Source: Candidatus Gastranaerophilales bacterium (GTDB lineage Bacteria; Cyanobacteriota; Vampirovibrionia; Gastranaerophilales; Gastranaerophilaceae). From it: DNA of 44,879 nt. The notes below the pieces were generated by a model. That model was given only the letters and a program-made list of their open reading frames with translations. It made no database searches and was not told where the DNA came from. The position numbers were made by a program, and so were the translations under genes. Below, in pieces: positions 25,822 to 44,879 of this stretch. The stretch spans positions 1 to 44,879 of the forward strand of contig JAJPXE010000114.1 in assembly GCA_021205645.1 (NCBI GenBank), given 5' to 3'. Every line of letters begins with the position of its first letter. Positions within the stretch are counted from its first letter, which is position 1.

Positions 25822-25845
25822 TACTTCAAAGGAATGACTTAAATA

Positions 25846-26138: not shown

Positions 26139-26175
26139 TAAACACTTGAGCTTTATTGCCAGGTGTTTATTTTTA
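26139..26175 (+). terminator. rho-independent terminator
   Basis: TAAACACTT / AGGTGTTTA stem followed by TTTTT. Confidence 0.55.
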
Positions 26176-26198
26176 CGAATAAAGGAGTAAAAAGGAAT

Positions 26199-26420
26199 AT
26201 GGTAAAGTCAGTTATTACAGGCAAAGAGTATGACCCCAGCAGGGCTATTTATATTACATCTCCCGTGCAAGCGCAGAAATATTTGGCGCGGTTGGGCACC
26301 GAGTTCTTCTTGGATATGCTGTATACAGGAACAAAGCGCCCAGACTCGTTGGTTTTTGTGTTTGAGCGTTGCCCTGAAACAAGGGATGCAAAGGCGTTAT
26401 GGGATAAGCACGAGCTTTAA
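26199..26420 (+). CDS. DUF5659-like small protein (paralogue 4 of 4)
   Basis: ATG after AAAGGAGTAAAAAGGA. VQAQKYLARLGTEFFLDMLYTGTKRPDSLVFVFERCPE. Confidence 0.5.
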   Translation: MVKSVITGKEYDPSRAIYITSPVQAQKYLARLGTEFFLDMLYTGTKRPDSLVFVFERCPETRDAKALWDKHEL

Positions 26421-26438
26421 TTCTAGGAGGCGCGTGTT

Positions 26439-26915: not shown

Positions 26916-26953
26916 CGGTGTATGGCCGCACAAATGAAGGAGTGAATTTTCAC

Positions 26954-27484
26954 ATGAAGGTAGAAGGATTGTTAAAGTTGATGTCCGATAAGAAATTTTT
27001 GGACTTAACTGAGGAACAACAACAGGAAATGCTGCGGAAGCGTTTGGAGGTTCCGCAGTATTTAAGCATCAAGGAGAAGCGCAGCGTAGTAAAAGAGATT
27101 TTGGATGCTGCCAGCGAGACTGAGCATGGAGTGGCAAAGGTAGATGGAATTAAGAAGTATATTTACTTGATTATGTATTCTATCAATGCTTACACGAATC
27201 TTGAGCTGTCGGATGATATTGAGAGTGATTATGATGCGTTATGCTCTGCTGGCGTTCTTGCGAGAGTGATTGATTTGTTTGACAGTGAGTATCAATCAGT
27301 GATGGCGTTACTGCAACTGGAGCAGGAAACCAGAGAGCAGGACGACAAGATTGAGCTTCAGGTCGCAAGGTTAATGGGGCAAGCCACAGATGTAATTACT
27401 GAATTGAGTGACATTATGGGCAAGCTTCATATTACGCCAGAAAATGTTGACCAGATTGACAACATTATTCAAATGCTCAAGTGA
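26954..27484 (+). CDS. acidic helical protein; candidate tail assembly chaperone (by position)
   Basis: Lies upstream of the TMP gene and is acidic and helical. Start uncertain (ATG 26954 or TTG 26906). Confidence 0.35.
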   Translation: MKVEGLLKLMSDKKFLDLTEEQQQEMLRKRLEVPQYLSIKEKRSVVKEILDAASETEHGVAKVDGIKKYIYLIMYSINAYTNLELSDDIESDYDALCSAGVLARVIDLFDSEYQSVMALLQLEQETREQDDKIELQVARLMGQATDVITELSDIMGKLHITPENVDQIDNIIQMLK

Positions 27485-27500
27485 GTGGGAATGATGCGAT

Positions 27501-28058
27501 GTGGGAAAGACGAATTATAGCGGTGTATTTGACGGCATTTTAAATGATGCGGAAACGATTGCAAAAGACAAAGTAAGAAGTGTAGGGAAAGAGATTTCCA
27601 GCAAAATGTACACTGCGGCTCAAAGGTATGTTGATGAGTATTATGGGAATTATACGCCTAGAAAGTATAAACGGTTGCACGAGTTGAAGACTCTAGCGAA
27701 TCCTGTTTATGAAGAATCCAGTTCTGGCAATATGTTTACGGTAACTGCTGGTGTGGAATATGACCCAGGGGCTATCGCTGGGGCGCATAAAAGTAACTCT
27801 TGGTACCATCAGTCTGGAAGCAACTGGGTTGACAGGTACAGTAGAAGCGATGACCAAAATAATGGCATTCCAGAGGCCGACTGGATTTTTGAAAATTTCT
27901 GGGCTGGCACACACCCTGTTTTTAAAAATGGGGAGCAAAGTTATGTGGCAGACCCGCAATCTCAAGAGCGTTTAATCAATGATTATATGGATGATGAGAT
28001 TGTGGCAAAGATGAACAGCTTACTAGCATTAACTGTTTCAGAACTTGGATTACTTTGA
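27501..28058 (+). CDS. hypothetical tail-module protein (185 aa)
   Basis: GTG start with a weak SD. Lies immediately upstream of the TMP gene. Confidence 0.4.
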   Translation: MGKTNYSGVFDGILNDAETIAKDKVRSVGKEISSKMYTAAQRYVDEYYGNYTPRKYKRLHELKTLANPVYEESSSGNMFTVTAGVEYDPGAIAGAHKSNSWYHQSGSNWVDRYSRSDDQNNGIPEADWIFENFWAGTHPVFKNGEQSYVADPQSQERLINDYMDDEIVAKMNSLLALTVSELGLL

Positions 28059-28076
28059 TATGGGAGGTGAGAAAAT

Positions 28077-31000
28077 ATGGCAGATAAAAAAAGACAAGTT
28101 GTTGTAGAGCTGTCGTTAGATACAAAAGACGCAGAAAAGAATATGAAAAAAATTACTGCAAATCTCGAAACGATGGCTGAAAGTGCCGGGAAATATGGTG
28201 ATTTTTCCTATTTTACGACATTATTAGACTATCTTGCGCAGATAGAAGATAGGTTGAATGAGTTACAAAAGCAAGACTCTGTTAAATTTGAAGATATTTT
28301 TGGGAAGAATGCAACAACTTTTATTGACTCTATTACCAAGTCGGTATCTTCGCTTTTAGAGGCTCCAGAACTTCTTGAACAGGCTGTATCCAAAATTGCT
28401 TCTATGGACTTTTCTGGAAATGCGGAGGAGGCACGAGAGGCAATTGAATTGCTTATAAATGTTTATCAACGTCTTGGACTTGAGGCCCCGAATGCTTTTG
28501 ACGGATATGAAAATTGGGATACCTCCACTTTAAGGTCTAAAGTAGATGATATTAAAAAAGCTGCGACAGATTTAAGTGGTATTGATTGGGGAAAAGCATT
28601 TAATGTAGAGGTTCCAGGTTCTATAGAAGAACAAATAAAAGAACTTGATAAACAGGTTACTAACCTTCAAAGAGTGAAGACTAGATGGAATAAAGCGATT
28701 GAAAACTGGGAACTCAATGGCATTGTTCCCAAGGGCAAAGAAGGCTCTACAAAAGAAGAAATTGACGAATATTGTGATATGCTTAGAAGCAATATTGAAC
28801 AGATTGATGAGCAAATGGAGTCGTTGTTCTCTAAAAAGTACGATTTGTCTCCAGATTCTATTTTCCAAGATTTTAATGATGCTGTAACAAAAGCATTTGA
28901 TTTTGATTTAGACACCGAGGAACAATCGCTTCGGACGCACTTAGATAAAATGCAAGCAATGGTGGACGCCTGTAGGGAAAATATTGATAGCGGTCTTGCC
29001 AACGAGTTGCAGGGAGTGCTTGATGATATTAATAGATATACCTTTAAACCAGATGAGGTTGATACAAGTGGCATTCAGAAAAGCATGGAAGCCATTATTG
29101 AGAAATATCAAAAAACTAGCGAGGCTGCCAATGATACAAAGCAAGAAGTTGTAAGCGCAAATGACGAAATAAATAACAGCTTCAATTCCAGTGGGGATGG
29201 CAATCCTAAAGCCGTACAACAGTATGAAGACCTTGGGGAAGCTGCTGCCAGTGCTGGTGATGCGGCCAAAGGTGCCGGAGATGATATTAAGAACGCCCTA
29301 AGTGGTAGTATTGGCAACGGAGCAAATGAGACTAAAAACAGTCTAAATGATGTGGCTGATGCCGCAGAAAATGCAGGAGATGCGACGAAGGCTGCCGGGA
29401 GTGCAATGGAAAGCGCATTTGATGGCAGTAATCCAAAAATAGCGGAATTACAGCAGCAGCTTGAAGAGATGACAAAAAAAGCGGCAGCAGCAGAACAAGA
29501 AGCGTATGATTTAGGGTCTGATGTATCTCATTTGCAGCAAGAGAACAGCGAACTTGGGAACTCATTATTAGATGCAAATAACAAAATTGAGGAAATGACT
29601 AAAAACCTGTCGGAGCAGGCTACCAAAATACAACAGCTTGAAAGTACAGTCTCTGGTATGGGCGATGGTTGGAGTAAGTATTTTGATGCAAGTGACCAAA
29701 TTGAAGCACAAAAGAAGCAAATAGCGGAGTTATCAACAACGTGCGAAACACTTCGGAGTGTACTCGATAACACGGATTCTGTGTGGGGCATTGAGAAGAA
29801 GCTAGAGTCTGTTTCAAGTGCGCTTCAACAGATGTCTGAAATGGTTGTTCAGTCCGCAGAGAAGGTCGACCAGCTTCAAAAAGAGTTTTCTGAGTTGAAT
29901 ACGCAAGCAGGAACCAATTCGATTTCAAGCGAGTCCTTTAATGAAATACTTCAAATATTAAAAGAGCTTGTTGCAGAGATGCAACCGTTTGTGTCCGCGT
30001 TGAATAATAGCGAGACTGCCCTAGGACAAATGGCAACTGAGGGCGGAGCCAGCATTCAGACATTGGTTGGGCAGCTTGAATCGCTTAGTGCAACACTTGA
30101 TGAGATTTCACAGAAATCTTTGGGAATAAACATTTTCCAGAAAGCAAGTGGGAGTGGCGGTACAGACCTTGCCGCATATAAAGAATCTTTGTTGTCTTTA
30201 CAAGACCCATTAACGCAGACAATAAGACTGGCACAAACGTTATCTGGCACAAATGGGACAGTTGCGCAAGCTGCGTATGGTATTGCTGATGCTATTGGCA
30301 GCCTTTCCAATGTAAAGAGTAAAGCGGCTATTGAAAATAATGCTAACGAATTACAACATTGGTACAACGTTCTTGTCCAAATAATTGAAGCCTCTGGGCA
30401 AGCGGAACAAATCAATTTTGAAAAGATTAAATTCCCAACGGCAGCAGATTTCAGTACAGATGCTACAGATAAATTCTTGCAGAGCCTCACAGATATAAAT
30501 ACGCAGTCGCAAACCACGACGGTTGAAACGACGCAAAATTTCACTGAGCTGGTTGCCGTTTTAGAGAAACTTTCAACCACCCTTGACGAGGTTGTCAAAA
30601 CATTCGATGGGCTAAAACTCAATATTAGCACAGAAGAACTTAGTCAATCTTTGGAACAAATTAAGCGACTTGAGCAGGAAATCGCTGATTTGAAGCAGCA
30701 GATGGCAGAAGTTAATGCAAATACTGGTGAAACAGGCGGCATGAAGGAAGGCTTTAAAGAAATTGCTGATGCTGCGGAAGATACGGCTCAAAAAGTTGAA
30801 GGCATTAAAGATAGTGTTGAGGAAACGCAGCAAGCGCTTGAAGATGCTGGTAAGGCGGCTAAGGAAGCGTTTGGTGACGAGGCCACCGCAGGTATAGATA
30901 ACGTACAAGATGAGGTAAAAGAGACTGTCGATGTTACACAGGAAGCTGCGCAAGATATTAAGCAGGCAGGAGAAGAAATCAAAAATGCGTTTAGTGATAC

Positions 31001-32476
31001 TGATATATACAGTTATCAGAACGCACTTGAGGGTTCACTTCAAAGAAAAAATAGCAATACGTTCCAGTGGATAGTTCAAGATGCTGACGAGGCTCTTGTA
31101 GAGGTGACTGCGGTTCTTGGGAAACTCGGAGATATTACGATTACAAAGAATCCAATTGAAGATATATTTTCCAGTGACTACAGTTCAAAATGGTTGAAGA
31201 ACATCCAGTCCGAGATGACTAAAACTATTAACGAGCTTGCTCAGTCTATGACAAAATTATCAAAGATGGACGTTGGTACGCAGCAGTTTACTGAATTGGA
31301 AAATCGAATTTCTGAATTGCGAGTTAGACTTTCAGACTTACAGGGGCAGTTGAATAATAGCACTTCTATCGGAACTGGAAATATCGAGAGCCAGCTTAAT
31401 AAGATATTCTCTAATTTTGGAGTAAGCGCAAGCCAGGAGATTGAAAAAGTAAAATCGTCATTTAATAGTTTGAGTGATGAAGCAAAGTCTAGTCTAAACG
31501 AGTTAGAGCAAAATGTTGATGGCGTTGAGGCAGATATTAAAGCCTTAGACGATGCGTTTGAAAATTTCAAATCTGCGCAAACTTTTGACGAGAAAACTGC
31601 GGCGGCGCAAGAGCTTGCAGAGGCTATATCCAAGACAACTGCTGAAGTCAAAGTTTTAAAAACGGCGGAGGATACATTAAATTCATCACAAAGTTTGTCT
31701 ACTGATATTCAGACATGGATGGATGAAAACCAAAAGGCTGCCAAGCAATTTGGGGACAGGCTGGATGAGCTGCAAGATAAATTAAAAAATAATATTGACC
31801 CGGCTAAACTAAAAGAGTGTGCGCAAGAGTTTGAAAATATCCAAGCTGAGGCTAAAAGTGCCAATTTGGTTACAAGCGATTTTGCTAAGTCGGCGGGCAA
31901 ACTTGCCCTTCAGCTTGCTGGCCTTGATACAACTTATGAAGTATTCCAAAAAATAGTTCAGGTCGTGCGCGAAGGCATTGAGGTTGTAACCGAGCTTGAT
32001 TCTGCTATGGCACAGTTAAAGATTGTTACTGGGGCCACAGACAGTGAGATGACGCAGTTCTTAGAGGAATCTATCTCGCTGGCGAAAGAGCTTGGGCAGA
32101 GTGTCAGTGACATATTGGGGACTATTGAAACGTTCTCTCGTTTGGGATACGACCTCGAAGAAGCCTCTACATTAACTGAATTTGCCAGTATTTTATCTAA
32201 TGTAGCAGATGTTGACATTGATGATGCGACGACTGGTCTAACTTCAATTGTTAAGGCATATGGGTATGCTGCTGAGGATGCCGAGCAGGTGTCCGATATT
32301 TTAATCACAGTTGGACAAAATTACGCAATTAGCGCGGAAGAAATTATGACTGCCTTGGAGAAATCTGGTTCTGCGTTGAGCGCTACGGGACTTTCTCTGG
32401 AGGAGTCTGTTGCGTTGTTGGCGGCTGCGAATAGCTCAATTCAAGATGCCTCCAGCGTGGGCACTGCGATGAAGAC
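28077..32476 (+). CDS. tail tape measure protein, exon 1
   Basis: GGGAGGTGAG SD. About 1,466 codons of coiled-coil-like sequence ending in a TMP-core-like ...SSVGTAMKT. The ORF runs a few codons into the intron (stop at 32510). Confidence 0.75.
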
Positions 32477-33040
32477 AGGATTTTGTCTTTATGTACAGAA
32501 ATGTGCATAGTGAACATATTTAACTGCGGGTAATGGGTAAAGTCTTGCACCACAATAGCGGGGAAACCACGCTATGAAGGGACGAAAGTAGAAACAACGC
32601 AAGAATGGCATATGGCTAAAAGCCTAAGTGCTTGTACAATCCCTGTTCCGCAACTAAGCTCCCTAACGTACCCCGTGGAACACACGGTACTTGAGTCGAG
32701 GGAGAAAGTTCAACGACCATTCCCATGTAGGGGTTGCAGGGAAGAATAAAGGTGGAAACCCTGAATACTGCAACCATCAGAAGTAGGGCGCAATCGCAAA
32801 TGGCGTGGGTGAAAACCCCTTAAATCGAAAAGGTATGCTTGCTGCTCAAATAGAACGTGAGTAAGAAATGGTCTTATCTCATATGAGAATATGAGTATTA
32901 TAAAGCCAAGAATGTTAAGTAGAGGCCCACGGTAAAGTGGGGTGCCACTTTTCTTGATGCGGGTATCTATTTGTGGTACAATAAAAACAGTAATAGGCTT
33001 TGTAGTAGATGTGTGTTGCGAACACATTTAAAAATGTATG
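32477..33040 (+). mobile_element. group I intron 1 of TMP gene (ORF-less)
   Basis: R-like GTTCAACGACCATTCCC (GACCAT 32715-32720) pairs with S-like AAGAAATGGTCT (ATGGTC 32868-32873). Clearly homologous to TMP intron 2. P1 candidate is AAGAC (32472-32476) / GTCTT (32485-32489). Ends ...TATG. Boundaries are good to a few nt. Confidence 0.7.
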
Positions 33041-33415
33041 AGTTTCGGCACGAATTCGTGGAGCCACCACTGAACTAGAGGAGATGGGAGAAGAAACCGA
33101 GGGACTGGCAGATGGCCTTTCAAAATATAATGATGAAATTATGGCACTCACTGGCGTCTCTATTCTCAAAGAAGGAACAACAAACGAGTACAAAGACCTT
33201 TATGATATTTTCTATGAATTATCTCAAATTTGGGATACATTGTCTGATACCGCACAATCTCGTGTGTCGGAGATTCTTGGCGGCACAAGGCAATTAAGTG
33301 TAACTTCCAGCTTAATCAATAATTTCAGTGATGCTGAAGGAGCGCTTACAGATGCTTTGGAATCTAGTGGCACTGCACTAGCTTCCAATGAGGTGTATAT
33401 GGACACCATCGAGGC
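33041..33415 (+). CDS. tail tape measure protein, exon 2
   Basis: Frame opens at 33042 with no SD. The junction gives ...AMKT|VSARIRGATTELEEMGEETEGL, a TMP-core-like motif. Ends ...NEVYMDTIEA. Confidence 0.7.
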
Positions 33416-35688
33416 AGTGTGTTTTTTGCCTCTTTGTATAGAAATATGCAAATTAGGACACATCTAAATGCAGGTAAAGGATAAGAGCCTTGCACCATAA
33501 TAACAGGGAAACCATGTTATGACGGGGCGAAAGCAGAAACAACGCAAGGATGGCATATGGTCAAAAACCTAAGTGTTATAGTAATTCCTGTTCATGCAGC
33601 GAAATACCCTAACGTTATTCACAGACCATGTGATAGTTAGTCGAGGGTATACGTTCACAGACTATCCCCATATCGGGGCCGCAAAAATAAAATAAAGGTG
33701 GAAATCCTGAATATTGCGGCCATTAGGAGTACGGCGCAAGCAAAGGCGCGGGAGAATCCCCCATAATCGGAAAAGGTGTGCTTGCTGTTCTAAGGAACGT
33801 GAGTAAGAAATAGTCGAGTCTCATATGAGAATATGAGGGTTATTAACTTTAAATAAAGGAACTATGGTATGGAAGCAGAAATTTATGAGCAAATAATTGC
33901 AGATTATAAAAACGGCACATCTTTTAAAGAAATAGGAGAAAAATACCAATATGATGTAAAATATCTTAAAAACAAGTTGGCGCAAGACGGCTACTATATT
34001 CCAGGTAAATATTTGCGATTTACAGAAGCCGAAATTAGTTTGATAAACCAATATTATCCAGATGGAGATTTAGACGAGCTGTTCCAAAAAATTCCAAATC
34101 ATACTCCAGAGGCGATAATATTAAAGGCTAAAAAGATGGAGACTGATTCTGGGGAATATAGTAGCTTAGAGAAAATGAAGCATCTTATTTCTGGTAAACC
34201 GTATACAATGGATGAAAGCACATTTAATCCAGATGATGGAAGTTTTTGTGCAATTACGCAAGATGGGTATAAAGTTCTAATTCGTAGAACAACGTTGAAT
34301 AAAAAGAAACTCCCAGACTTTTTCAATGTAAAGAACCCGTATACAGTGGACAATATTCGGCACTATACAGAATTGAATGGAATTGAAACAGAGCTGTTGT
34401 CAAATAGTTATTTTGGGCAAAATGAAAAACTTGATTGGAAATGTGGTAGATGTGGAGTGCATTTCACAGCCTCTTGGAAGCAATTCCTACGAGGAAAACG
34501 GCTATGTGACGCTTGCACCAAAAAAGCGACCAGAGAAAAACAGCAACTTGATATGGACTATGTAATTAAGGTTTTGTCTGAATGTGGGTACATATTAAAA
34601 GAATATAATGAAGATGTGCCAATTTCTAAACAGTCTATTGTCTTGGAGGATAACGAGGGATACAAATATGAGGCAATATGGAATCATGTTTTAGACGGAA
34701 TCAAGCCGCATTGTTTTGACCCGGCAAATAAGTTTACGATTGAGAACATTAATCATTATCTTTCACGCACGGGGCGCTCCGATTACTCTTGTATCTCGGA
34801 GGTATATACTGGAAATCATTCTCCATTGGCATTTGTACATAAACCATGTGGGACAATTTTCAAGTCTTCTTTGGTTGCCATGCAGGGAAAAGAGATAGAA
34901 GGTGCGGAGGAGAGACGATGGAAAACTTGTCCAAATTGCTTTCCACGGAGAATTGAATCACTTCATGCCTCAGTCCTCAAACAGGTGTTCTTACATGAGT
35001 ATCCAGACACAGTTATAGAAGACCAGTCATGTAGAAATCCAAATAGCGGACTTCCGCTCCCAACCGACATAGTAAATCATAGGTTGAAAATTGCCGTTGA
35101 GATTCAAAGTCAATACCATGACGGAGAACGTCAGGCAATAAAAGATGCGATTAAAAGAGAGTTTTGGCTCAACAAAGGATACAAATTTTATGGCCCAGAT
35201 ATTCGTGATTATTCAGTGCTTGGTATTGTGCAAGTATTTTTTCCTAGTATTAAAGAACTGCCGACATATTTAAATTATAATTATTCGTGTAGTGCAAGTA
35301 CCAAAATTGCTGAAGATTTGTTGAATGCAGGGCTTACGATAGGTGAAGTTGCGGATGCAATGGATGTGAAATATTCTACAATCTATGACATAGTACAATC
35401 AAAACGGATTGTTCTTCCTGCTAATTATACAAGAAGGCCAAAAAACGTAAAGGCGATTGTTCAGTTGGACGAAAATGGAGAATATTTAAATACCTTTTCG
35501 TCTTTCCTGGATATAGAACGAAATGGTTATAACAGGTATTCTATACGCAAAAAACTGAAATCTGGAGAGCATCTTTCTCAAGGCTTTTATTGGATTTTTG
35601 AGAAAGATTATAAACAAGGAGTAGTAGAAATATAATTTTAAAGTTAATAACCGGCTAGACGTTGCGAATCTAGCTAAATATGAAAATG
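33416..35688 (+). mobile_element. group I intron 2 of TMP gene (carries homing endonuclease ORF)
   Basis: R-like CACAGACTATCCCC (GACTAT 33660-33665) pairs with S-like AAGAAATAGTCG (ATAGTC 33810-33815). Long stretches are near-identical to intron 1. P1 candidate is GAGGC (33411-33415) / GCCTC (33428-33432). Ends ...AAAATG (35688). Confidence 0.7.
33869..35635 (+). CDS. intron-encoded putative homing endonuclease (PD-(D/E)XK / Vsr-like core with HTH and Zn-ribbon modules)
   Basis: Sits after P7' of intron 2. Candidate nuclease core is LPLPTDIVNHRLKIAVEIQSQYHDG...KREFWLNKGYKF. Two repeated modules each end in a Cys cluster (CGRCG...CDAC and C...CPNC). HTH-like ends. Confidence 0.55.
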   Translation: MEAEIYEQIIADYKNGTSFKEIGEKYQYDVKYLKNKLAQDGYYIPGKYLRFTEAEISLINQYYPDGDLDELFQKIPNHTPEAIILKAKKMETDSGEYSSLEKMKHLISGKPYTMDESTFNPDDGSFCAITQDGYKVLIRRTTLNKKKLPDFFNVKNPYTVDNIRHYTELNGIETELLSNSYFGQNEKLDWKCGRCGVHFTASWKQFLRGKRLCDACTKKATREKQQLDMDYVIKVLSECGYILKEYNEDVPISKQSIVLEDNEGYKYEAIWNHVLDGIKPHCFDPANKFTIENINHYLSRTGRSDYSCISEVYTGNHSPLAFVHKPCGTIFKSSLVAMQGKEIEGAEERRWKTCPNCFPRRIESLHASVLKQVFLHEYPDTVIEDQSCRNPNSGLPLPTDIVNHRLKIAVEIQSQYHDGERQAIKDAIKREFWLNKGYKFYGPDIRDYSVLGIVQVFFPSIKELPTYLNYNYSCSASTKIAEDLLNAGLTIGEVADAMDVKYSTIYDIVQSKRIVLPANYTRRPKNVKAIVQLDENGEYLNTFSSFLDIERNGYNRYSIRKKLKSGEHLSQGFYWIFEKDYKQGVVEI

Positions 35689-35868
35689 AAAAACAAGCCA
35701 ATTCAGTGCTGCTGTTCAAGAACTCGCATCTGATGCTCTTGACACAGACCTAATTAAAAATATCGTAGACCTTGGAACGGACTTAATTGAAGTCCTAGAT
35801 GCAATCATAGATAATGTCGGAATGCTTGGCGTCGCAATTGGCGCTGTTGGTATTGCGGCATTCGCAAA
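35689..35868 (+). CDS. tail tape measure protein, exon 3 (3' end uncertain, 35866-35878)
   Basis: Reads KTSQFSAAVQELASDALDTDLIKNIVDLGTDLIEVLDAIIDNVGMLGVAIGAVGIAAFAK, a typical TMP core continuation. The frame hits TGA at 35879 inside sequence resembling the 5' ends of introns 1 and 2. Confidence 0.6.
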
Positions 35869-36326
35869 GAGTTTTGTTTGACCCAAAAATATGATGAGTC
35901 TCCAAATTCATCACGCATTGGGTGACAAATCCGCAAAAAGCGGAGACAAACGTGGACGAGGCTTGGCGTTGCGCCGCAGGCATAATTAACCTGCGGCTAC
36001 ACTCCACGCACAAGTCCATGAGTAGTTCTCTTTTAAAACAAAAACTAAGGGGTAAATGCTGGAAACACCGGTTAAACCGTTCTGCCTGAATTTTTTAGGA
36101 GCGAAAGCAGAAACAAGTGAACGGCTGGCGCAAGGGAATACATAAGCCTAAACGCTACGCGACGCGAATAGCGGAGCAGATGGTCAATCAGCAGGACGGC
36201 ATGAGCTGTAAAAGCGAGTGCAATCCTCAGAGACTACCCACCCTTCGGGCTGCTACGCATATACAAACGCGGCAACCTGTAATGTATAGTCCAAATGCGG
36301 AAAAACAGGCAGCAAAGCAAAAAAAC

Positions 36327-36362
36327 GGGAAGATGCCCCCGCAGTAACGAGAACATCTTCCC
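36327..36362 (-). terminator. rho-independent terminator (minus strand)
   Basis: Minus strand reads GGGAAGATG...CATCTTCCC followed by GTTTTTTT. Confidence 0.6.
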
Positions 36363-36368
36363 TGCGCA

Positions 36369-36455
36369 CTAGGCGCAGAAGCGGTACCTGACCGAAGTCC
36401 GTACCTGGATACGAGCCTTAACTCGTACCTTTACAGTACACTTAACTTTAGCCAT
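36369..36455 (-). CDS. 28-codon highly basic mini-ORF (may be non-coding)
   Basis: Minus strand has an AAAGGAGGTGG SD, 6 nt, then ATG. Translates MAKVKCTVKVRVKARIQVRTSVRYRFCA. Lies between a consensus promoter and a terminator, but also inside intron-structured sequence. Confidence 0.3.
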   Translation of the reverse strand: MAKVKCTVKVRVKARIQVRTSVRYRFCA

Positions 36456-36551
36456 GTGTACCACCTCCTTTCTAGGCCGTCAGGGAAAGAGGGTGTCAAC
36501 GACTTTCCCATTTCGGCTCTAAAAAGCAAAGCAAAAGGTGTTACTACACAT

Positions 36552-36580
36552 ATTATATACGGGCTTGGTATTTTTGTCAA
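36552..36580 (-). promoter_or_regulatory. perfect-consensus sigma-70 promoter (minus strand), firing antisense into the intron core
   Basis: Minus strand reads TTGACA (36580-36575), exactly 17 nt, TATAAT (36557-36552). Confidence 0.6.
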
Positions 36581-36723
36581 TGCGCGTTGCTTTGTTACCT
36601 TAATTATATTCTGAGAACCTATCTCTCGATTGTGGTTCCCCTGGCGCGGGGATGATGGGGGGCGCCATTAACATATTTTATATTCATTTTAGAAATAGTA
36701 CAAGAAATATGTCGTAAAAAGGC

Positions 36724-36752
36724 TTGACAACATCCTTGCGTAGATTTATACT
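36724..36752 (+). promoter_or_regulatory. sigma-70-type promoter for the cassette + strand genes
   Basis: TTGACA (36724-36729), 17 nt, TATACT (36747-36752). Lies 40 nt upstream of the GGAGGGAAATATG start. Confidence 0.6.
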
Positions 36753-36792
36753 TTTAATAAAAATACGGGAGGTGTTGTTTTTGGAGGGAAAT

Positions 36793-37104
36793 ATGCAGAG
36801 AAAACCAAACATCCCACCAGATGGTTTGGCGCGTAAACGACGCAAATCTGGAAGGCCGTTGTATAGGGGTATAATACATTACACTGGAGACAAAAACATT
36901 TCTAATAGTAATGGTTCTTTTATTGTTTATACAGGGCAATATAAAGGTGTAAAGCATTTTAATAAAAAATTGGTAATCAGATGGGAAACAAAGAAGCCTA
37001 TCACTAATGGGCTACAGGCAGCATCTGATGTACCGAAAGAGGGAGCGGGCAGACCTATTTTACCAAAGCCTGCCCCAACAAAAAGGGACGGTGATAAAAA
37101 ATAG
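36793..37104 (+). CDS. small basic protein with AT-hook-like GRP motifs (103 aa)
   Basis: GGAGGG SD. ARKRRKSGRPLYRG and EGAGRPILPKP resemble AT-hook cores. Lys-rich tail. Confidence 0.55.
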   Translation: MQRKPNIPPDGLARKRRKSGRPLYRGIIHYTGDKNISNSNGSFIVYTGQYKGVKHFNKKLVIRWETKKPITNGLQAASDVPKEGAGRPILPKPAPTKRDGDKK

Positions 37105-37229
37105 ATGCACTTTTAGTTTGTATACAGGGTATAGCCATTATTATAGATGGGCTTATACCGGGACTTATATGCTGCGAAGTCTTTTTATTCCTTAGCTCTA
37201 AAAAAGTCTCTCATTTAGAATTAAGGTTA

Positions 37230-37754
37230 TTGGCATATATTATTATTACGAGAGCAATTAAGTCGTTGATGGCGTTATTACATGGCTTTATTTTTGCGCA
37301 ATGGCATCCAGGGGATTTACAAAAAATTATAGTATATTACTTTTTTGCTGTTATTCTTGGGGTTATGTCCGCAATTATTTGGAAAAGTGATAAGTTCTCC
37401 CGTGCTTTGTTGAAATTTTCCAGGAAGACAACAGACTCTGATATCTTCAATGGGCTACTTGATTTTGATGGGGGCACGGGGGTAAATGTTGTGTTGAAAA
37501 ATGGAGATATTATAAATGGCTCTGTTTTTCGAGTAGAAGAAAACGGAAATGATTCTTGGATAGCATTACATGATTATGATATATATCAACATGATGGTCT
37601 TGAAGTTCATTCTTCTGATTTTAAAGAGGAAGGAATTGTATTGATAAAGCGGAATGATATTTTAAGGATTCATTATACCTACACCCCAAATACTAAAATG
37701 TCAGATGCGCTCGTGCAACAAAGGGGACGGCGCATAGAAAAAAATAAAAAATAA
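37230..37754 (+). CDS. membrane-anchored protein of unknown function (174 aa)
   Basis: Two N-terminal hydrophobic helices (SLMALLHGFIFAQW, IIVYYFFAVILGVMSAIIW) and a beta-rich C-terminal domain. TTG start with a weak SD, so the start is uncertain. Confidence 0.45.
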   Translation: MAYIIITRAIKSLMALLHGFIFAQWHPGDLQKIIVYYFFAVILGVMSAIIWKSDKFSRALLKFSRKTTDSDIFNGLLDFDGGTGVNVVLKNGDIINGSVFRVEENGNDSWIALHDYDIYQHDGLEVHSSDFKEEGIVLIKRNDILRIHYTYTPNTKMSDALVQQRGRRIEKNKK

Positions 37755-37790
37755 CAAAACCGAGCAAGTATTCACGCCTGCTCGGTTTTA
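37755..37790. terminator. bidirectional rho-independent terminator between convergent cassette genes
   Basis: CCGAGCA / TGCTCGG stem flanked by an A-run on the left (AACAAAA) and a T-run on the right (TTTTA). Confidence 0.65.
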
Positions 37791-37848
37791 ATGTTTGCTT
37801 ATTTATTTCGTATTAGAATTTATAACCGCAATCTTGGCATTGGTGGGG

Positions 37849-39174
37849 CTAGTATCGTTCGATGGAGTCGATGTATGTTTCTGGCTGAATGTTAATATTG
37901 TAGTCGTGGATGAAGTTATAATCATCAAGCCATTTATAAAATGCCTTATCATTTTCAAATTTCATCCCATTTATATCCATGCGCCTTTCGAGAAAATGAA
38001 GTACCTCTGTTTTGGTCATAATGCCATCATAGATTGCATGAGCTAAAATAGAACGCCGTGTTCGCGCAGATAGTGCATCTCTTTGCGATACATTATACCC
38101 AAGTTGGTGTAAAACGCTTTCTTCGCTCCAAGAGCTGTATTCCCAATCGTAAAAGCCAGAACCTAGCATTCTTATATCGTTTGCTAGTGGGCCAAGGATA
38201 TTTCGATAATACTCATAGGCGGAATAGCTTAACATCTTTCGTTTACAATAATAGCAATATTCGAGGTCAATTTTCCACTCTTCTCCGCTGTCGTCTTTGA
38301 CGATTGTAGTAACTTGGGTGATTGGATGATGGTGCCTAAAACAGACAATCAAACCTTTGTAAACATATAATGTGTTATTTGGTTCGGGCTGCGGTGGCTC
38401 TGAGAATTGAAATTTGGGACTTGCTTTTATTCTCTGTGGAATTTCTTTTGGTTGCACCGGAGCGGGTCGGTGCTGCACAGCGCAAAGTCGAGCAACTGTT
38501 TCATCACGAGCTTTTAGCTTCATCTTTGGAACAATTTGTAGCGCATCTGGTGTGATTGTGTAGTATATGTCGGCAATAGCCCAATATTCTTTGCCGCTAA
38601 TTATGACAGATTCTCCCGGACATTGAGCATCCATCACGGCAATAATTCTGACCATTTTATTCGGGACTCGGTATACGGGGATAAAATACTTAGCCTTAGA
38701 AAGATATGAATCAAGTTTTCTGGCGTCTTTTAATGTACAAATGCTTCCGAGTGAGACTTTTCTGGTCAGATATTCGTCTTTAGCCGTTTTCGCATCTTCC
38801 CACTCTTTTTGTATACGAGCGTTGCGAGAAATTGGTGCCAGTTCTGGCTTTGGGGCTTCTCTCTTTTGCATCTCGGCTATTTTCTTGCGGAGATAATAAC
38901 GGATTGGGTTTAAGTATTCCTCTCCATCAACTTTCATTTCTGGTATAATTGTCAGTGCTTCAATTGGGAACTCCATCGGCCAGGAAAGCCGCGCATAATA
39001 TTGCCGATGGTTGATTTTGATGATTCTAACTCCAGAGCATTCTTCTTCTACTACAGGTACAACCAATGCCGTTTCAATGTTTTCTTGCACATGGACTACG
39101 AGAAAAAGTGCATCATCAGTCCATACTCCACGGTTTTGCTTGCAAATATCGCCAATAGATGGAGTCTTGTACAT
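37849..39174 (-). CDS. 441-aa protein of unknown function: tandem N-terminal barrel-like repeats, Cys/His cluster, helical C-terminal domain
   Basis: Third gene of the minus-strand operon. The internal repeat SIGDIC...ALVVPVV..C.G.RIIKI....YYA......P.EALTIIPEMKV matches SLGSIC...VRIIAVMDAQCPGESVIISGKEYWA....TPDALQIVPKMKL. Cys/His cluster CFRHHH...CYYC. Confidence 0.6.
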   Translation of the reverse strand: MYKTPSIGDICKQNRGVWTDDALFLVVHVQENIETALVVPVVEEECSGVRIIKINHRQYYARLSWPMEFPIEALTIIPEMKVDGEEYLNPIRYYLRKKIAEMQKREAPKPELAPISRNARIQKEWEDAKTAKDEYLTRKVSLGSICTLKDARKLDSYLSKAKYFIPVYRVPNKMVRIIAVMDAQCPGESVIISGKEYWAIADIYYTITPDALQIVPKMKLKARDETVARLCAVQHRPAPVQPKEIPQRIKASPKFQFSEPPQPEPNNTLYVYKGLIVCFRHHHPITQVTTIVKDDSGEEWKIDLEYCYYCKRKMLSYSAYEYYRNILGPLANDIRMLGSGFYDWEYSSWSEESVLHQLGYNVSQRDALSARTRRSILAHAIYDGIMTKTEVLHFLERRMDINGMKFENDKAFYKWLDDYNFIHDYNINIQPETYIDSIERY

Positions 39175-39202
39175 ATGGAATCACCTTTTTCTGCTTTAGG
39201 TT

Positions 39203-39736
39203 CTACCACTTATATCCGCAATCCTTACACTGGAATTGTGACCTGGCCGACTTGCTGAAAATGCCGAGAGTTGCGACGCCTACGGCCTTGCGAGTGAAAG
39301 AGATGGTCTTGATGTTGGTGGAGCCGCAGGTGGGACAGTGGGGGATATGGGCGCGGCGTTCGTGGAACTTGTAGGTATAATTGTACCAGGTGTCATTGAG
39401 AGGATTGGGTTCTGTATGTTTGGACGGGATAAAGCTAACAGAACAGTTATCTGCCTCAAAGTGTTCTTTAATATACTGAACGTTTTCTTCTTTTATCCCC
39501 CCAAGTATAATACTACCATTCTTGTCAAGTAATTTAGTTGCTTCCGCTTTTTGAATCCCAAAATTTTTTAGGACAGCCACAATAAACGATTTAGCTCCAC
39601 CTATGCTATTTATTGTCATGTCAAATAGATTATTTTCTTTTTCCTGCATAGTGCTAATTGGGTATCCACAATGAATACACACAGAAGATTTATCGCTTAT
39701 TTGCTTCCCGCATTCTGGGCAATTTATAAGCGCCAT
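39203..39736 (-). CDS. double zinc-ribbon protein with central ribosomal L7/L12 C-terminal-domain-like fold
   Basis: CPECG..(8)..CIHCG at the N-terminus and CPTCG...CKDCG at the C-terminus. The centre, FDMTINSIGGAKSFIVAVLKNFGIQKAEATKLLDKNGSIILGGIKEENVQYIKEHFEADNCSVSF, aligns by eye with the L7/L12 CTD. AAGGAGG SD. Confidence 0.6.
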   Translation of the reverse strand: MALINCPECGKQISDKSSVCIHCGYPISTMQEKENNLFDMTINSIGGAKSFIVAVLKNFGIQKAEATKLLDKNGSIILGGIKEENVQYIKEHFEADNCSVSFIPSKHTEPNPLNDTWYNYTYKFHERRAHIPHCPTCGSTNIKTISFTRKAVGVATLGIFSKSARSQFQCKDCGYKW

Positions 39737-39756
39737 ATAATTCCTCCTTGTCTTAT

Positions 39757-40191
39757 TTATAGCCCCAATATATTTTTTCTTTTTGCGTCGTATTCGTCTG
39801 GGGTTATGTACCCGGCATCTTTTAATTCGTCTAGCTCTTTAAGCTCTGCCATCTTATTATTTGCTTTAGGTTGTGTCTTTGGTTGGCTAGATGCAGATTT
39901 TTTCTTGTCACTTCCTAGGCCAATTACTCCTGAAGCGAGTAAAATTACACCAATGACAAGGATAATGGCACCTATAACAATGACAATTTTGTAATTGTCC
40001 AGACGCCCTTCCCAGATTGATATTGTTTTGCGTGAAGAATCACTTGAGCCAAATAATGAGTCCAGCCCAGATTGTGCGCTAATCATATTATTGGCTAAAG
40101 AGTACCTATTATATCCGTAGGCTGTAATTCCACCACCGACGACGGTTGATACGCCGCCAATGATTGCTGCTGTTTTAGATGTAGAAGCCAT
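39757..40191 (-). CDS. membrane protein with C-terminal SHOCT domain
   Basis: Gly-rich hydrophobic N-terminus and a TM helix IVIVIGAIILVIGVILLASGVIGLG. C-terminus MAELKELDELKDAGYITPDEYDAKRKNILGL is a SHOCT signature. TAAGGAGGAAAC SD. Confidence 0.65.
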   Translation of the reverse strand: MASTSKTAAIIGGVSTVVGGGITAYGYNRYSLANNMISAQSGLDSLFGSSDSSRKTISIWEGRLDNYKIVIVIGAIILVIGVILLASGVIGLGSDKKKSASSQPKTQPKANNKMAELKELDELKDAGYITPDEYDAKRKNILGL

Positions 40192-40255
40192 AGTTTCCTC
40201 CTTACGCTTAATGCTATTGTTATTTCTTAGTAATTATTGCATTTACTTTTCTGTA

Positions 40256-40284
40256 ATTTTACCACAACTTTACATAAAAGTCAA
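40256..40284 (-). promoter_or_regulatory. sigma-70-type promoter for the minus-strand operon
   Basis: Minus strand reads TTGACT (40284-40279), 17 nt, TGgTAAAAT (extended -10, hexamer 40261-40256). About 65 nt upstream of the 40191 start. Confidence 0.6.
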
Positions 40285-40321
40285 TCTTCTTCTTGTCTGC
40301 TTTCAAGGAGATAAAAGATGG

Positions 40322-43300
40322 AACAAGTATAGCTGAGAAGGCGCTTCAGGCTTTTAGTACAACGATTGGCAAGGCCAAAGATGCAGAAGTTGATTTTGCC
40401 TCTGGCTTTAGCACTGGTAGTATTGTAAGTTGGGGGACTGCTATTGTTGCCATTATTGCGGCTGTGGTGGTTCAGTATCAACAATATAAACAATCTCTCC
40501 TTGAGGCAGTGCAGGCCGCTGAAGAATCTTTAACTTCTTGGAATGAACAAAACGATTCTCTTGAAGAGTACAAAGAACGTGTTGAGGAACTGAGAACTTC
40601 ATTAGACTCCGGCAATCTCACTGAGGAAGAAGCTTACGATGCTAAGACTGAACTGCTTGAGATTCAAGATGCGCTAAGTGAATCTTATGGAGTTTCTGCC
40701 GACGCACTAAACTTGTTAAACGGTGAGATGAAAACTCAGCTTGAATTAATAGATAGCTTGGGTGTAGCCGAGGCTAATCGAGAATTGACAGCAAATAAAG
40801 AAGGTATTGACGAGGCAACTAAGCAAATGGAGACGTTGCGTAACTACTTCGCAGATGTTGACGCAATGGATGCAGAGACTTTAGATGCAGTACAAAAAAT
40901 TGTAGACAAGTACGACGATTTGTCTTTACTCCAGAATGAGAATGGGACATATAGAATAACATTTACTGGAGATGCTACCCAAGCCACAGAGACTATGGAT
41001 GCTTTGGCTATAGACCTTCGTGCATTAGAAGACGACGTTGGAGAAAACGCCATTCTCGACTCGCTTCTTAGTTATACGTCCGATTCTTACAACGCCGCGA
41101 AAGAAGTTTTGGATACCTATCAGAGCGTTTATGATGAAGCTTGGCTTGCAAAGTTAGTCACCGACACTTCCAAGGTTGCGGACAATCTTTCCGAGGGGCT
41201 TACGCTCCCAGAAGGAGTTACTACTTATTCAGACCTTTACGAGAAATATGCTGAAGCTGTTGAGGACTACAATGAAGCTCTTGAAGATGGAGACGCTTCT
41301 AAAATTAAGGGAGCTAAAGACCAGTTTGACGCTGTAGATACTGTTGTCCAAGACCTGATGGGCGACGACAACATGGGCGGCTACGGTGATTTGTTCAACG
41401 AGATAGCCGACAGCCTTGATACTGCTTCGATTGCCGCACAAGATTTCAACAACGCTTTAAGCGGGGATTCTTTGCAAAGTGCCATAAGTGAAATTGATGG
41501 CTGGAGCGCTGATGAATTAAGCAATCAAATTTTCGACTTAGCTAATGCCAGCAATTCCTTAGTTGACATCTGGAGTTGGGGCGGAGATGAAGTATCCGGT
41601 TCGCTAGTTCAAATTATGGATGCGGCAGAAGAAGCCGGGGTCGTTACCAGTGAAAATGGGCAGTATACAGAGGAGCAAATCAACACGGTTATCAGTCTCC
41701 TTGAATCTCTCGGCTATATTACATCCGATGTTATTGAAAGCTCTGCTCTCTCAGTCGATGACCTTACCACAGCTTACGCTTCTGCCGAAGAAACAGTTGA
41801 GGGCCTAACAACAGCAATGAGCGAATCGGCTTCTGCCACTGGGCTTTCAGCGGACTCAATTAGCTTAGTAGAATCGGCCTTTGAGGGGCTGGACGACTAC
41901 GACGCTGCCGCACTGTTTGAGACAACTGCCAATGGCGTACATTTAAATAGAGAAGAATTAGAGCGGCTGAATGAAGAATACAGAGAGCAAGAGGCTGCAA
42001 AGTATTCAGATACGCTGGCAGACTTGAATGAGCAGTTATATGACGCACAGGCAGCCCTTGAAGCGGCTGGTGATGACCAAGAGGCGTATAATGCGGCGCT
42101 GAGTGACATTTCTTCGATTGAAACGCAAATTCAAGAAGTGCAGTTGTTGCAAGCACAATATGAAGGGCTTACTTCGGCCTACAATGATTTTGTGAATGCA
42201 CAAAGCGCGTCCGATGAACGTGATGCGTATGCAAACATTGGCGACAGTTATGAGGATTTAAATGACCTCATTAACGCCGGATGGGTCGGGGACTCAGAGA
42301 TTACAGAGTATCTTGATTTGTTGATTGCCGCCGATAAACGTACACAGGATAATTATGAAGACTGGAAACTCTTAACAAAAACTATCGAGGGAACCAATTA
42401 CAGCCTGATGGATTTCTTTCAATATGATGATGACTCTGGAGATTTGACTGTAAACGGGCTTGCGAACTTTTTGGACTCTCTGGATGCGTTGTTCGGAGAC
42501 GATATTATTAATATGGCCGAGGATGGCAGCTTCGCGCTTGACCTAACGGGAGAAAAGATTACAGAGGTTGCCGAGGGGCTTGGAACAACCGAGGAATTTC
42601 TTGAGTTAGTCGGTAAGGCCCTTATTGACGCGGGCATTGACGTAAAATTCGACGATGCCGCCGAGAGTTCGTCCACTCTTGCAGATGAAGTTCAGGAAGT
42701 GCAGACAGCTATCGCAGAGACGGCAGATACTGTCCAGGATGCTACTGATTCGTTGCGTGAAATGGGAGAGCTTGACGGCTTTACTTACAACCTCGATACA
42801 GACCTTGAGGGCATTACTGAGCAATTAACTGCCGCCAAAGAAGCCTTGTTGGATGAAAACGGTGAGATTAAGTTTGAAGCGGATACAGATGAGTATCAAG
42901 ACGCTATAACTATTCTTACTGCCCTTATACAAAAACAGCAAGAGCTTGAGAATGCAGACCGCGCTATTGTGCAAGTTGATGTTTCTGAAGCCAGCAGTGA
43001 TGTTGGAGAATTGGCGCGAGATATTCAAACACTCCAGGGCCAGCTTGATAATTATGAGGCCAATCTTAATATTGGTGCCGACACTTCTGATGCAGAAGAA
43101 CGTATCATTCAATATGTTGAAGAAGTTCAGACGCGGCTTGAAAACCTTGACGAGCAAACGGTAATAGACCTTGGGCTTGACGATGAGGATTTCCAGGCGG
43201 CACTTTCTAATGTAGCTAATACAGATATTGAAGCTGGCGCGACAGTTTCTCAGGAAGATTTAGATACTATCCAGGGCAAAATTGATGGAATCAGTGAAGA

Positions 43301-44487
43301 AGCACTAATTTCAGTTGGGCTGGCTGAAGACTCTGCAACAGCAGAGGAAACGCTAGAAGATATCCAAACTACCGTTGAGACGTTAAATGCTACACCAGAT
43401 GTTTCTATCACAGTTACAGTGACGACAAATGGGGCAGAAGAACTCGATAGTGTTCGCGCCGGATTGGAGTCCGTATCTGAATTTAGCGAAACGCAACAAA
43501 CTGCAAGCGGCGTTGTCGAATGGGCAAATGACGCCGGTGAAGTTGAAGAATATGCAGAGGTAGAGAAACAATCCAGCGGCACAGTTGCATGGGTGAATGA
43601 TGCCGCTTTGATAAATGCGTATATCAATCAAATGAAGTATGCCAGTGGCACAGTTGTTTGGTCGAATGATATTTCAAAGGTTAGGACTAGCTTTACTGCC
43701 ACCGGAACCGTGAAGTGGAATAACGCAAGCTCATATCTTGGAACTGCTCATGCGGCTGGTACGGCGGCGGCAAGGGGGAACTGGGGGCTTCCTGAAGACG
43801 AGGAGAATGTTCTCGTGGGGGAGGTAGCACCAGAACTTGTAGTTGACGTTAATTCTGGCCGGTATTATACCGTAGGAAACGATGGGGCAGAATTTGTAAA
43901 CCTACCAAGGAATTCGATCGTGTTCAACCACAAGCAAACCGAGGAAATATTACGTTATGGGCATATTGATTCGCGTGGTCATGCACTGGTTGAAGGAACT
44001 GCTTTGTATAGCGCCTCTGGAAGTTTGCACACAAGTACAAGCAGCACATCCAGTGCGAGTAAAAAATCAAGTAGCTCCAGTAGCAGTAGCTCAAAATCCA
44101 GTTCCAGTTCCAGCTCTAGCAGTTCTTCAAGCTCCAAGAAGTCTAGCAGCTCAAGCAGTTCGTCCTCGGCGGCGGCAGAGGCCGAAATTTATGACTGGAT
44201 AAGTGTTCTCCTTGATAGAATTGAAGCCCAAATTGAGTCTCTTGACCGTACTGCATCGAGCGCATACAAGAACTCTACAACGCGGCTAAATGCAACTCGA
44301 AGTGAAATTTCTGCGATTACGAATGAGATTGCTACACAACAATCTGCGTATGATTATTATATGCAGAAAGCTAATTCGGTTGGCCTGTCGAGCTATTACA
44401 AAAACCTCGTACAAAATGGCGACATTAAGATAACAGAAGTCTCAAGTGAAAGTACACAGGAAAAGATAGATGAGTATACCGAATGGT
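40322..44487 (+). CDS. tail tape measure protein, exon 4 (both ends approximate)
   Basis: Open frame from 40278 with no usable in-frame start. Hydrophobic segment WGTAIVAIIAAVVV followed by about 1,380 codons of acidic coiled-coil. Reads ...KIDEYTEW then TGA (44487-44489) at the start of intron-like sequence. Confidence 0.6.
44031..44170 (+). repeat. poly-Ser/Lys low-complexity tract within TMP exon 4
   Basis: TSTSSTSSASKKSSSSSSSSSKSSSSSSSSSSSSSKKSSSSSSSSS, encoded by mixed AGC/AGT/TCN codons. Confidence 0.8.
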
Positions 44488-44879
44488 GAATTTTTTTGTG
44501 CCCCGTTGCCTATTGTTAGGTGACGGTATTCTATTTAATTGCTGGAATATCCTAAAATTAACCAAACTACAGCGTGAGGATGAAATAAGCCTGGGCGCGA
44601 ATGTTGCGAAAGCAGAAAAAATTGGTTAAATAAGTACATGAGTAAAATCTAAATGCTTATGGGAGAAACGTCTGTGAGAGCAGGCGCTTTTTTTGTGCCC
44701 AAAATGGACAATCAGCAGCGAAGCTTCGAACAGAAGAACGTTCAACGACTATCCCTGAGATGGGAGTAGGGCCGCAAGCGGTTGGCGGCTCGAAAAGGTA
44801 GACTATGTAAATTTGATTTTATTGGCGTTATATTGCGTTACAATAAAAAGGATACGTTTATGTTAGTAGAGAATCAATA
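44488..44879 (+). mobile_element. group I intron 4 of TMP gene (5' part; runs off the window)
   Basis: TTTTTTTGTGCCC start resembles the other TMP introns. GCGAAAGCAGAAAAAATTGG and TGGACAATCAGCAGCGAAGC segments. R-like GTTCAACGACTATCCC (44741-44756). No S partner before the window end. Confidence 0.55.

Follow-up and report, generated by a model that had tools for sequence, protein, structure and literature searches.

Contig JAJPXE010000114.1 of assembly GCA_021205645.1 (44,879 nt, the whole of which is called the window here) carries, between position 28077 and its right-hand end, four plus-strand reading frames separated by gaps, and the question which this locus raises is whether these are separate genes or the pieces of a single one. 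A sequence-only reading had proposed that they belong to one gene for a tape-measure protein (TMP), cut by four group I introns, and the comparative analysis described here upholds that proposal: the frame is open when spliced, and about 20 relatives carry the protein as a single open reading frame (ORF). The best explanation as a whole, with a probability which we place at about 0.75, is that the window holds the late structural module, or operon, of an SPbeta-like siphophage of gut Clostridia, in which a TP901-type TMP gene starts at 28077 and comprises at least five exons interrupted by four group I introns. The main novelty lies in intron 3, a member of a cargo-bearing intron family with a conserved antisense gene.

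Colinearity of the tape-measure exons

Exon 1 (28077-32476, 4,400 nt) belongs to the ORF 28077-32510, whose ATG follows a strong Shine-Dalgarno (SD) sequence, GGGAGGTG, and ends in ...AAG AC|. Exon 2 (33041-33415, 375 nt) and exon 3 (35689-35878, 190 nt; ending in ...AAG AGT TTT GTT|, with U as the last exon base) are followed by exon 4 (40296-44487, 4,192 nt), which starts with TCT GCT (SAFKEIKDG...) and ends in ...GAA TGG T|. Of exon 5, the first 13 nt (44867-44879; T|TA GAG AAT CAA TA, that is L E N Q ...) are included before the gene leaves the window, all exons lying on the plus strand. Spliced at these borders, exons 1-4 amount to 9,157 nt or 3,052 codons without any stop, and, as had been noticed from the letters, there is neither a start codon nor an SD sequence where the frames reopen. 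The earlier estimate was about 9.1 kb and 3,040 codons; a very long gene is indeed what was found, and the exact figure changes because the end of exon 3 moves from 35868 to 35878 and the start of exon 4 from 40322 to 40296, for the reasons given with intron 3.

The first ORF leaves the Pfam family PhageMin_Tail at profile position 140 of 201, and joining exons 1 and 2 recovers positions 74-197. The protein contains the TP901-type TMP core (PF10145/TIGR01760; E 3e-19 for PF10145) and matches PHROG tape-measure families (best E 7.5e-46), and a search with its spliced form returned hundreds of TP901-type TMPs at about 50-58% identity. In addition, a profile built from these TMP matches retrieved 45 IMG/VR loci, about 20 of which have a single TMP ORF, of 2,000 to >2,977 aa, running across all the break points. 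Uninterrupted homologues (P0084 and P0019) align without gaps over junction 1 (AMKT|VSARIRG) and junction 2 (DTIEA|KTSQF), and homology continues unbroken from exon 3 to exon 4 in intronless loci and in Enterocloster phage PMBT24. The end proposed for exon 4, at 44487, can be retained, as its last residues (KIDEYTEW) align at residue 1259 of the second half (1,957 aa) of the homologue L003, which continues from there; about 700 TMP residues should therefore still be to come, and the full TMP, of at least 3,052 aa, is probably about 3,700 aa long. Such a length is ordinary for the clade, in which uninterrupted relatives reach 2,884 to >2,977 aa.

Gene callers annotate separate ORFs at this locus, as they would if the breaks were real gene boundaries of a fissioned tape measure, recoding sites or inteins, and not introns. 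Such an explanation is hardly credible, since the reopened frames lack any initiation signal, the breaks lie within a conserved Pfam domain, and each insert has a group I core and a terminal G; inteins, moreover, would be in frame and translated, yet the inserts hold stops in the reading frame. Every intron ends in G (33040, 35688, 40295 and 44866), and its predicted precise excision restores a host ORF colinear with the intronless homologues. In practice, automatic annotation presents the TMP of the window as four or five ORFs without relation to one another, labelled either 'hypothetical' or as a short 'tape measure'. A gut-prophage TMP that is very common is mis-annotated in the same way; its 597-aa piece P0084 occurs in 493 blocks of the assembly collection, and prophages of the P0084 type are present on NCBI and JGI contigs as long as 413 kb. 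The recognition of the introns restores TMPs of 2,500 to >3,000 aa, together with the predictions of tail length that depend on them.

Introns 1, 2 and 4

Intron 1 (32477-33040, plus strand, 564 nt) has no ORF, and intron 2 (33416-35688, plus strand, 2,273 nt) contains one of 588 aa (33869-35635, plus strand). The latter encodes a putative homing endonuclease, matching phrog_559 ('HNH endonuclease', E 8e-23) and, weakly, treble-clef zinc finger and helix-turn-helix families in a Pfam scan, with no relative among PDB sequences. The R/S pairs which had been assigned to both introns are present, with R at 32709 and S at 32863 in intron 1 and at 33654 and 33805 in intron 2, and P7 of this lineage reads GACYAT/ATRGTC. 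The two introns are 76% identical over 429 nt, and homologues of intron 1 occupy the same TMP site in L050 and L083 (Oscillospiraceae metagenome-assembled genome, MAG). A consensus computed with RNAalifold from introns 1 and 2 and their L050 counterpart contains P2, P4-P6, P7, P7.1, P7.2, P8 and P9, with 39 of its 111 pairs kept despite changes on both sides and a covariation term of -16 kcal/mol. Intron 1 is IA-like, with P7.1 and P7.2, and the architecture of the pair is, as modelled, of the IA type.

Because protein colinearity and the terminal G allow no others, the 5' junctions can only be AAGAC|A and GAGGC|A. In intron 1, the guide TGTCTT (32484-32489) pairs with exon AAGAC and the first intron A, and in intron 2, TGCCTC (33428-33433) pairs in the same manner with GAGGC and A. 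Both exons end in C, and this C pairs with G within the 6-bp P1 helices AAGACA/TGTCTT and GAGGCA/TGCCTC, and L050 and L083 likewise show AAGAC|A...TGTCTT; a C-G pair is thus found at the 5' splice site instead of the canonical U.G. A C at the last exon position of group I introns is exceptional but known (PMC4227781), and the intron 1/2 lineage supplies natural cases of this rare pair. As the guides differ between the two sites, the guide seems to have been re-adapted within the lineage, for which the introns IVS1 and IVS2 in TMP genes of Bacillus cereus prophages offer a published case (PMC2504315), and the data fit a single lineage that colonised two sites of the same gene. The sequence-only reading had extended such paralogy, and ectopic spread within one gene, to introns 1, 2 and 3; the identity and the guides of introns 1 and 2 bear this out for that pair, and intron 3 has to be removed from it, since its similarity to intron 2 is limited to 19 nt, too little for a clear paralogue.

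Other insertions in the PhageMin_Tail core were observed in L042, L046, L047, L049, L050, L083 and L084, near query residues 51-54, 150-162 and 163-173, and L050 and L083 have a second interruption directly after VSARIRG. Going by these alignments, the core is an intron hotspot in the clade.

Intron 4 (44488-44866, plus strand, 379 nt, without ORF) has a stop codon right at its 5' splice site and its R element at 44741. It had been credited with an R element only, and in fact the complete intron lies in the window, with an alignment of 44479-44866 to the Rfam group I model RF00028 over positions 1-253, the full length of the model (47 bits, E 1.7e-9), up to the terminal G 44866. Read by eye, the exon end GGU pairs with GCC, U 44487 standing opposite G 44500; this pairing is common to L040, where a related intron occupies the same TMP site, after TGG T. 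A P1 helix with U.G at the 5' splice site is accordingly predicted for intron 4 as it is for intron 3.

Intron 3 and its cargo

Intron 3 (35879-40295, plus strand, 4,417 nt) opens with the in-frame stop UGA and ends in ...CTTG. The abundant homologue P0084 (597 aa) stops where exon 3 stops and is followed, in its contigs, by about 430 nt, a minus-strand zinc-ribbon gene and a 1,957-aa ORF. Those 430 nt are homologous to 35879-36310 of the window and contain P7 (GACTA/TAGTC), an 11-nt tetraloop-receptor motif, P3, P4, P6 and P8. Further members of the family were found by pattern scans, and the comparison included seven members with a mapped 5' junction and nine subtypes with both junctions. 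The ribozyme is confined to roughly the first 430 nt of the intron; in the window (35879-36350, plus strand) P3 lies at 36047 and the partner of P4 at 36186, and P7 is formed by GACTA 36232-36236 and TAGTC 36287-36291, with P8 between its strands. A core fold of 76 pairs, including the P3/P7 pseudoknot, was specified by hand, and its pairs were then counted over the family. Among 11 members, 92.4% of the cells are paired, against 36-46% with the partners slid, and 25 pairs change on both sides, a number reached in 0 of 500 shuffles. P3, P4 and P7 are invariant, so that for these helices only the match to the consensus sequence counts. A structural group I core with covariation is thus predicted by the models for the intron 3 family, with the P3/P7 pseudoknot, as well as for that of introns 1 and 2, with P4-P9 plus P7.1 and P7.2.

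Both junctions are conserved in the family. In all the members compared, the stop codon T(A/G)A constitutes the first three intron bases, right after the exon U, and the downstream exon opens with TCTG(C/T) right after the terminal G (a G|TCTG junction). Complementarity to both exons is shown by a guide that follows the pattern NNNGA|GGNNN; its version in the window is GCGGA|GACAAA (35940-35950, plus strand), the P10 half facing TCTGC of the 3' exon and the P1 half TTTGTT of the 5' exon. Over the nine subtypes, 92.9% of the P1/P10 cells are paired (27-58% with the partners slid), U.G is found at the 5' splice site in 9 of 9, and five pairs show a compensatory change. Moreover, the spliced protein of L003, KVIKNVA|SAIKGIEGAKTLTSIIQALGTAFPQ, aligns without gaps to the intronless L025, KVIKQFATLSKDAKGFAKLSFFKQALTKSFPR, and the codons after the 3' splice site differ mostly synonymously among L003, L012 and L018, with no in-frame start codon before them. 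The conserved G|TCTG junctions, the P1/P10 covariation and the gapless match of L003 to L025 place intron 3 at 35879-40295 and account for the corrected exon borders. Going by the sequences compared, it belongs to a family of its own, which is fixed at a single site of the TMP gene in many human-gut prophages.

Some other proposals for this intron were discarded. The R/S pair GACTTT (36503) and AAAGTC (40278), which had been suggested, is not P7, and another R-like box (GTCAACGACTT at 36495) belongs to the leader of a minus-strand 27-aa gene, has no partner and shows no similarity outside the box. Three models of junction 3, namely AA|A (the one first proposed), GC|A with a C-G pair and a guide located in the first hairpin, failed against L011, L012, L018, L069 and L071, and they conflict with the KVIK motif conserved in intronless homologues.

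Beyond the core and up to the last 40 nt or so, intron 3 consists of about 3.9 kb of cargo, which the sequence-only reading had overlooked; its six ORFs are distributed over the two strands and accompanied by three sigma-70-like promoters and by two terminators. A minus-strand ORF of 27 aa (36376-36456; MAKVKCTVKVRVKARIQVRTSVRYRFCA), highly basic and provided with a strong SD, has a promoter at 36580-36552 (12 of 12 consensus positions) and a strong terminator at 36362-36327; it may represent a small toxin or regulator, if it is a protein at all. Two plus-strand ORFs, of 103 aa (36793-37104) and 174 aa (37230-37754, with a hydrophobic N-terminus), lie behind a promoter at 36724-36752 (11 of 12). 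The others form a minus-strand operon between a promoter at 40284-40256 and a terminator at 37790-37755, in which a 144-aa membrane protein with a SHOCT domain (39757-40191) comes first, followed by a 177-aa protein with two zinc ribbons (39203-39736) and by a 441-aa protein (37849-39174). Homologues of the zinc-ribbon protein are encoded by the antisense ORF in other intron 3 family members from human-gut prophages, which makes it the conserved antisense passenger of the family; it belongs to a widespread clostridial family, some homologues of which match the Ribosomal_L12 C-terminal domain (PF00542). The 103-aa and 174-aa ORFs matched no family in Pfam, PHROGs, NCBIfam or PADLOC, the 441-aa ORF had neither a family nor a PDB match, and across the cargo ORFs these databases and PDB sequences gave no transposase, nuclease or known defence domain, and no function could be assigned.

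The process envisaged is as follows. The late operon would be transcribed, probably by a YonO-like RNA polymerase of the phage itself (presumably ORF 4949-6976), and each ribozyme would fold, its internal guide binding the upstream exon at its end (P1) and, for intron 3 at least, the downstream exon at its start (P10). The exons would then be ligated by two transesterifications into an mRNA encoding a TMP of 3,052 aa or more, and unspliced RNA would be translated just to a nearby stop. Intron 2 still carries its homing-endonuclease-like ORF. In the intron 3 family, the whole core sits at the 5' end, with the reverse zinc-ribbon gene and its own promoter between the core and a short 3' tail; since this space has expanded in the window to 3.9 kb with six ORFs, the intron may have become a harmless parking place for accessory genes within an essential late gene. 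We give about even odds to the fuller proposal, according to which the family is a carrier of promoter-bearing accessory genes in widespread human-gut SPbeta-like prophages. The cargo would be transcribed antisense, presumably in the lysogen, and the 5' ribozyme of about 430 nt would find a 3' site located 1-4.4 kb away by means of a 5-bp P10, so that the entire island is cut out of the late mRNA; the window would hold the largest known example, with its six ORFs. If this is true, introns would be a route for gaining moron or accessory genes within essential phage genes.

Several points weigh against this interpretation. Actual splicing is deduced from sequence comparison only, and introns 1 and 2 must splice after C, which is exceptional for group I introns (PMC4227781). 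The search of the region with the Rfam group I model, proposed as a check, succeeded for intron 4 and gave nothing for introns 1-3. In gathering mode (50 bits) no match was obtained in the whole window, the score of intron 4 being below that cut-off (47 bits); in E-value mode, intron 4 and an upstream stretch at 21757-22093 were the only matches, introns 1-3 remaining without one even at E up to 10, and a focused scan of 35840-36340 returned nothing for intron 3. RF00028 likewise misses the L003 intron, and its misses have been read as low sensitivity of the model and not as counter-evidence to the introns. The 3' end of intron 4 can be placed only tentatively, since exon 5 falls beyond the window; it is indicated by the Rfam alignment together with a single conserved Glu, splicing after G 44866 giving ...EYTEW|LENQ as compared with DFYEKAI in L003. 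To extend exon 5, an exact match of the last 30 nt of the window was sought in viral and metagenome collections, and a single-sequence locus search was made, both with no hit.

As regards intron 3, the window copy is the most divergent member of its family: it lacks helix H2, the family helices P9 and P9.1 do not align in it (0 of 8 and 2 of 5 pairs), and it retains just 113 of the 154 columns that are invariant among its relatives. In addition, transcription must traverse 4.4 kb with host-type promoters, a convergent operon and a hairpin terminator, a read-through which seems plausible. The same features could mean that introns 1, 2 and 4 splice and that intron 3 has been disabled by its 3.9-kb cargo and the loss of peripheral helices, leaving either a split product, with exons 1-3 encoding one polypeptide (about 1,655 aa) and exon 4 onward another, or a defective prophage; a TTG at 40293, one codon before the 3' splice site, would be in keeping with this reading. 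It is considered rather unlikely, since no SD lies ahead of that TTG, P1 (6 bp with U.G) and P10 (5 bp) are intact, and P3 (6 of 7 pairs), P4 (5 of 5), P6 (5 of 7), P7 (5 of 5) and P8 (8 of 9) are retained. Furthermore, all 3,052 codons are still open, and relatives of the L003 type have no start codon at the junction, their downstream codons being conserved nonetheless.

The continuity of the cargo has to be considered as well. In SRR15221352, two Logan contigs (_51 and _1046) are 100% identical to 18077-36937 and 36917-44851 of the window; the first ends and the second starts exactly at 36917-36937, which is bridged solely by their 21-nt overlap, and the 103-aa ORF spanning this join is absent from every other record searched. 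The long intron 3 could therefore be an assembly artefact, contigs of two related phages in the sample having been joined there, with the cargo not on one molecule. This is very unlikely in view of the complete identity of both contigs to the window, of the intact ORF, with promoter and SD, that runs over the join, and of the lack of any repeat that would explain a break or a mis-join at 36917-36937. Moreover, the layout of TMP N-terminal part, ribozyme, antisense zinc-ribbon gene and TMP C-terminal part recurs on many independent contigs, and a wrong join would shorten the cargo only, intron 3 itself remaining.

Two further observations concern the relatives of this intron. In L094, L098, L111 and L119, copies of the family ribozyme without P1-P3 are joined to unrelated upstream sequence, and these look like 5'-truncated relics. 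On the other hand, a different insert splits the TMP about 30 codons further downstream in L006 (11051-12435) and L028 (6125-7099), carrying a minus-strand 212-aa ORF in L006 and a minus-strand zinc-ribbon ORF in L028, with no Rfam match in either insert; this may be a second cargo-bearing intron family.

Relation to known introns and the phage setting

That TMP genes can harbour group I introns, even as paralogues at two sites within one gene, is already known: TMP-IVS1, IVS2 and IVS3 have been described in prophages of the Bacillus cereus group (Tourasse and Kolsto 2008, PMC2504315). Like the introns discussed here, they are of class IA and lie at several sites in the conserved part of siphophage TMPs, with up to two per gene and some without a homing endonuclease, and IVS1 and IVS2 are 80% identical paralogues at different sites, with a site-adapted P1 and guide, like introns 1 and 2 (PMC2504315). 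The window differs from them in having four introns in one TMP, and maybe more past its end, in its gut Clostridia hosts and SPbeta-like phage, in one lineage which would splice after C and in one intron with a multi-gene cargo on both strands. What goes beyond the published cases, besides the cargo-bearing intron 3 family, is the number of introns per gene, the splicing after C predicted for introns 1 and 2, and the fact that a common gut-prophage TMP is annotated as two genes.

With regard to intron 3, a parallel is offered by the IStrons, in which a group I ribozyme is fused to an IS200/IS605 element (PMC4227781). They share with it a 5'-terminal core, behind which come 1-2 kb of cargo that encodes proteins, and a distant 3' splice site, and non-canonical 5' splice-site nucleotides occur among them too (PMC4227781). 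Intron 3 differs in its antisense passenger with its own promoter, and in being fixed at one site of a phage gene and not scattered over genomes. It is not an IStron, because neither an IS200/IS605 transposase nor a TnpB domain was found in the cargo ORFs with Pfam, PHROGs, NCBIfam or PADLOC, the nearest match of this kind being a weak Zn_ribbon_IS1595 under the cut-off. In the nrdD (sunY) intron of phage T4, an ORF lies 3' of the complete catalytic core, so that, as in intron 3, the whole core precedes the coding part and the 3' splice site is found from afar. The T4 ORF is a sense-strand homing endonuclease, whereas the passengers of intron 3 are mostly antisense and not recognisable nucleases. 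Eukaryotic group I introns, too, can contain oppositely oriented genes or many genes unrelated to the intron: some nuclear rDNA introns have a homing endonuclease gene in antisense orientation (PMC9548176), and the giant mitochondrial intron ND5-717 of corallimorpharians contains other genes (PMC6545197). These are nuclear or organellar, unlike the phage intron described here. In a limited literature search, which is no proof of absence, no bacterial or phage group I intron with a promoter-bearing bidirectional cargo was found. In this context, the intron 3 family is a testable case of a group I intron of bacterial viruses that would tolerate kilobases of foreign, oppositely transcribed genes, and it bears on the maximal distance between ribozyme and 3' splice site and on introns as safe insertion sites for accessory genes.

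The assignment to an SPbeta-like phage is based on the families encoded in the window. The genes upstream of the TMP include the Pfam families YonD_N, YonB, YomW and YomU_Tube, and ORF 4949-6976 (675 aa) matches the RNA-dependent RNA polymerase (RdRP) family PF05183 with E 2.9e-5 and 23.4 bits, slightly under the cut-off of 23.8 bits; its YonO-like label comes from the relationship of the SPbeta polymerase YonO to the eukaryote-type RdRP family. This combination of Yon/Yom structural families with a YonO-type RNA polymerase points to membership of the SPbeta-like group. The TMP itself shows about 30% homology to SPbeta YomI, relatives were found in MAGs of gut Clostridia (Oscillospiraceae, Ruminococcus and Roseburia), and no close relative was obtained when the region was compared with GenBank phages by Megablast. 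The length of YomI we take to be 2,285 aa. Scaled from this assumed length and from the 320-nm tail of SPbeta (PMC8270828), the TMP predicts a tail of at least about 430 nm, with some 430-560 nm as the expected range, so that the long tail which the sequence-only reading had derived from the length of the protein is judged reasonable.

Other parts of the window also show signs of mobile elements. After ORF 4949-6976, a gap of 305 nt with an S-like box, AAGATATAGTC, at 7204 precedes ORF 7282-8079, and the phage RNA polymerase gene (4949-8079, plus strand) may itself be split by an intron. A 1,022-aa ORF (11765-14833, plus strand) contains a Hom_end/LAGLIDADG_3 domain at residues 290-368, which suggests an intein within a large structural or packaging protein, and an ORF for a homing endonuclease with GIY-YIG and NUMOD3 (20036-20869, plus strand) lies among the structural genes. 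Together with the introns and the putative intein, the latter ORF indicates that the structural module has been heavily colonised by selfish elements. The upstream stretch matched by RF00028 (21757-22093, plus strand; 35.5 bits, E 1e-5, over the whole model length) appears to be a further group I intron, with an R-like CTCAACGACTA at 21967 and an S-like ATGATATAGTC at 22061. It breaks a gene starting at 21489, the next ORF being 22287-22595, and its core is 73% identical to that of intron 4 across 74 nt.

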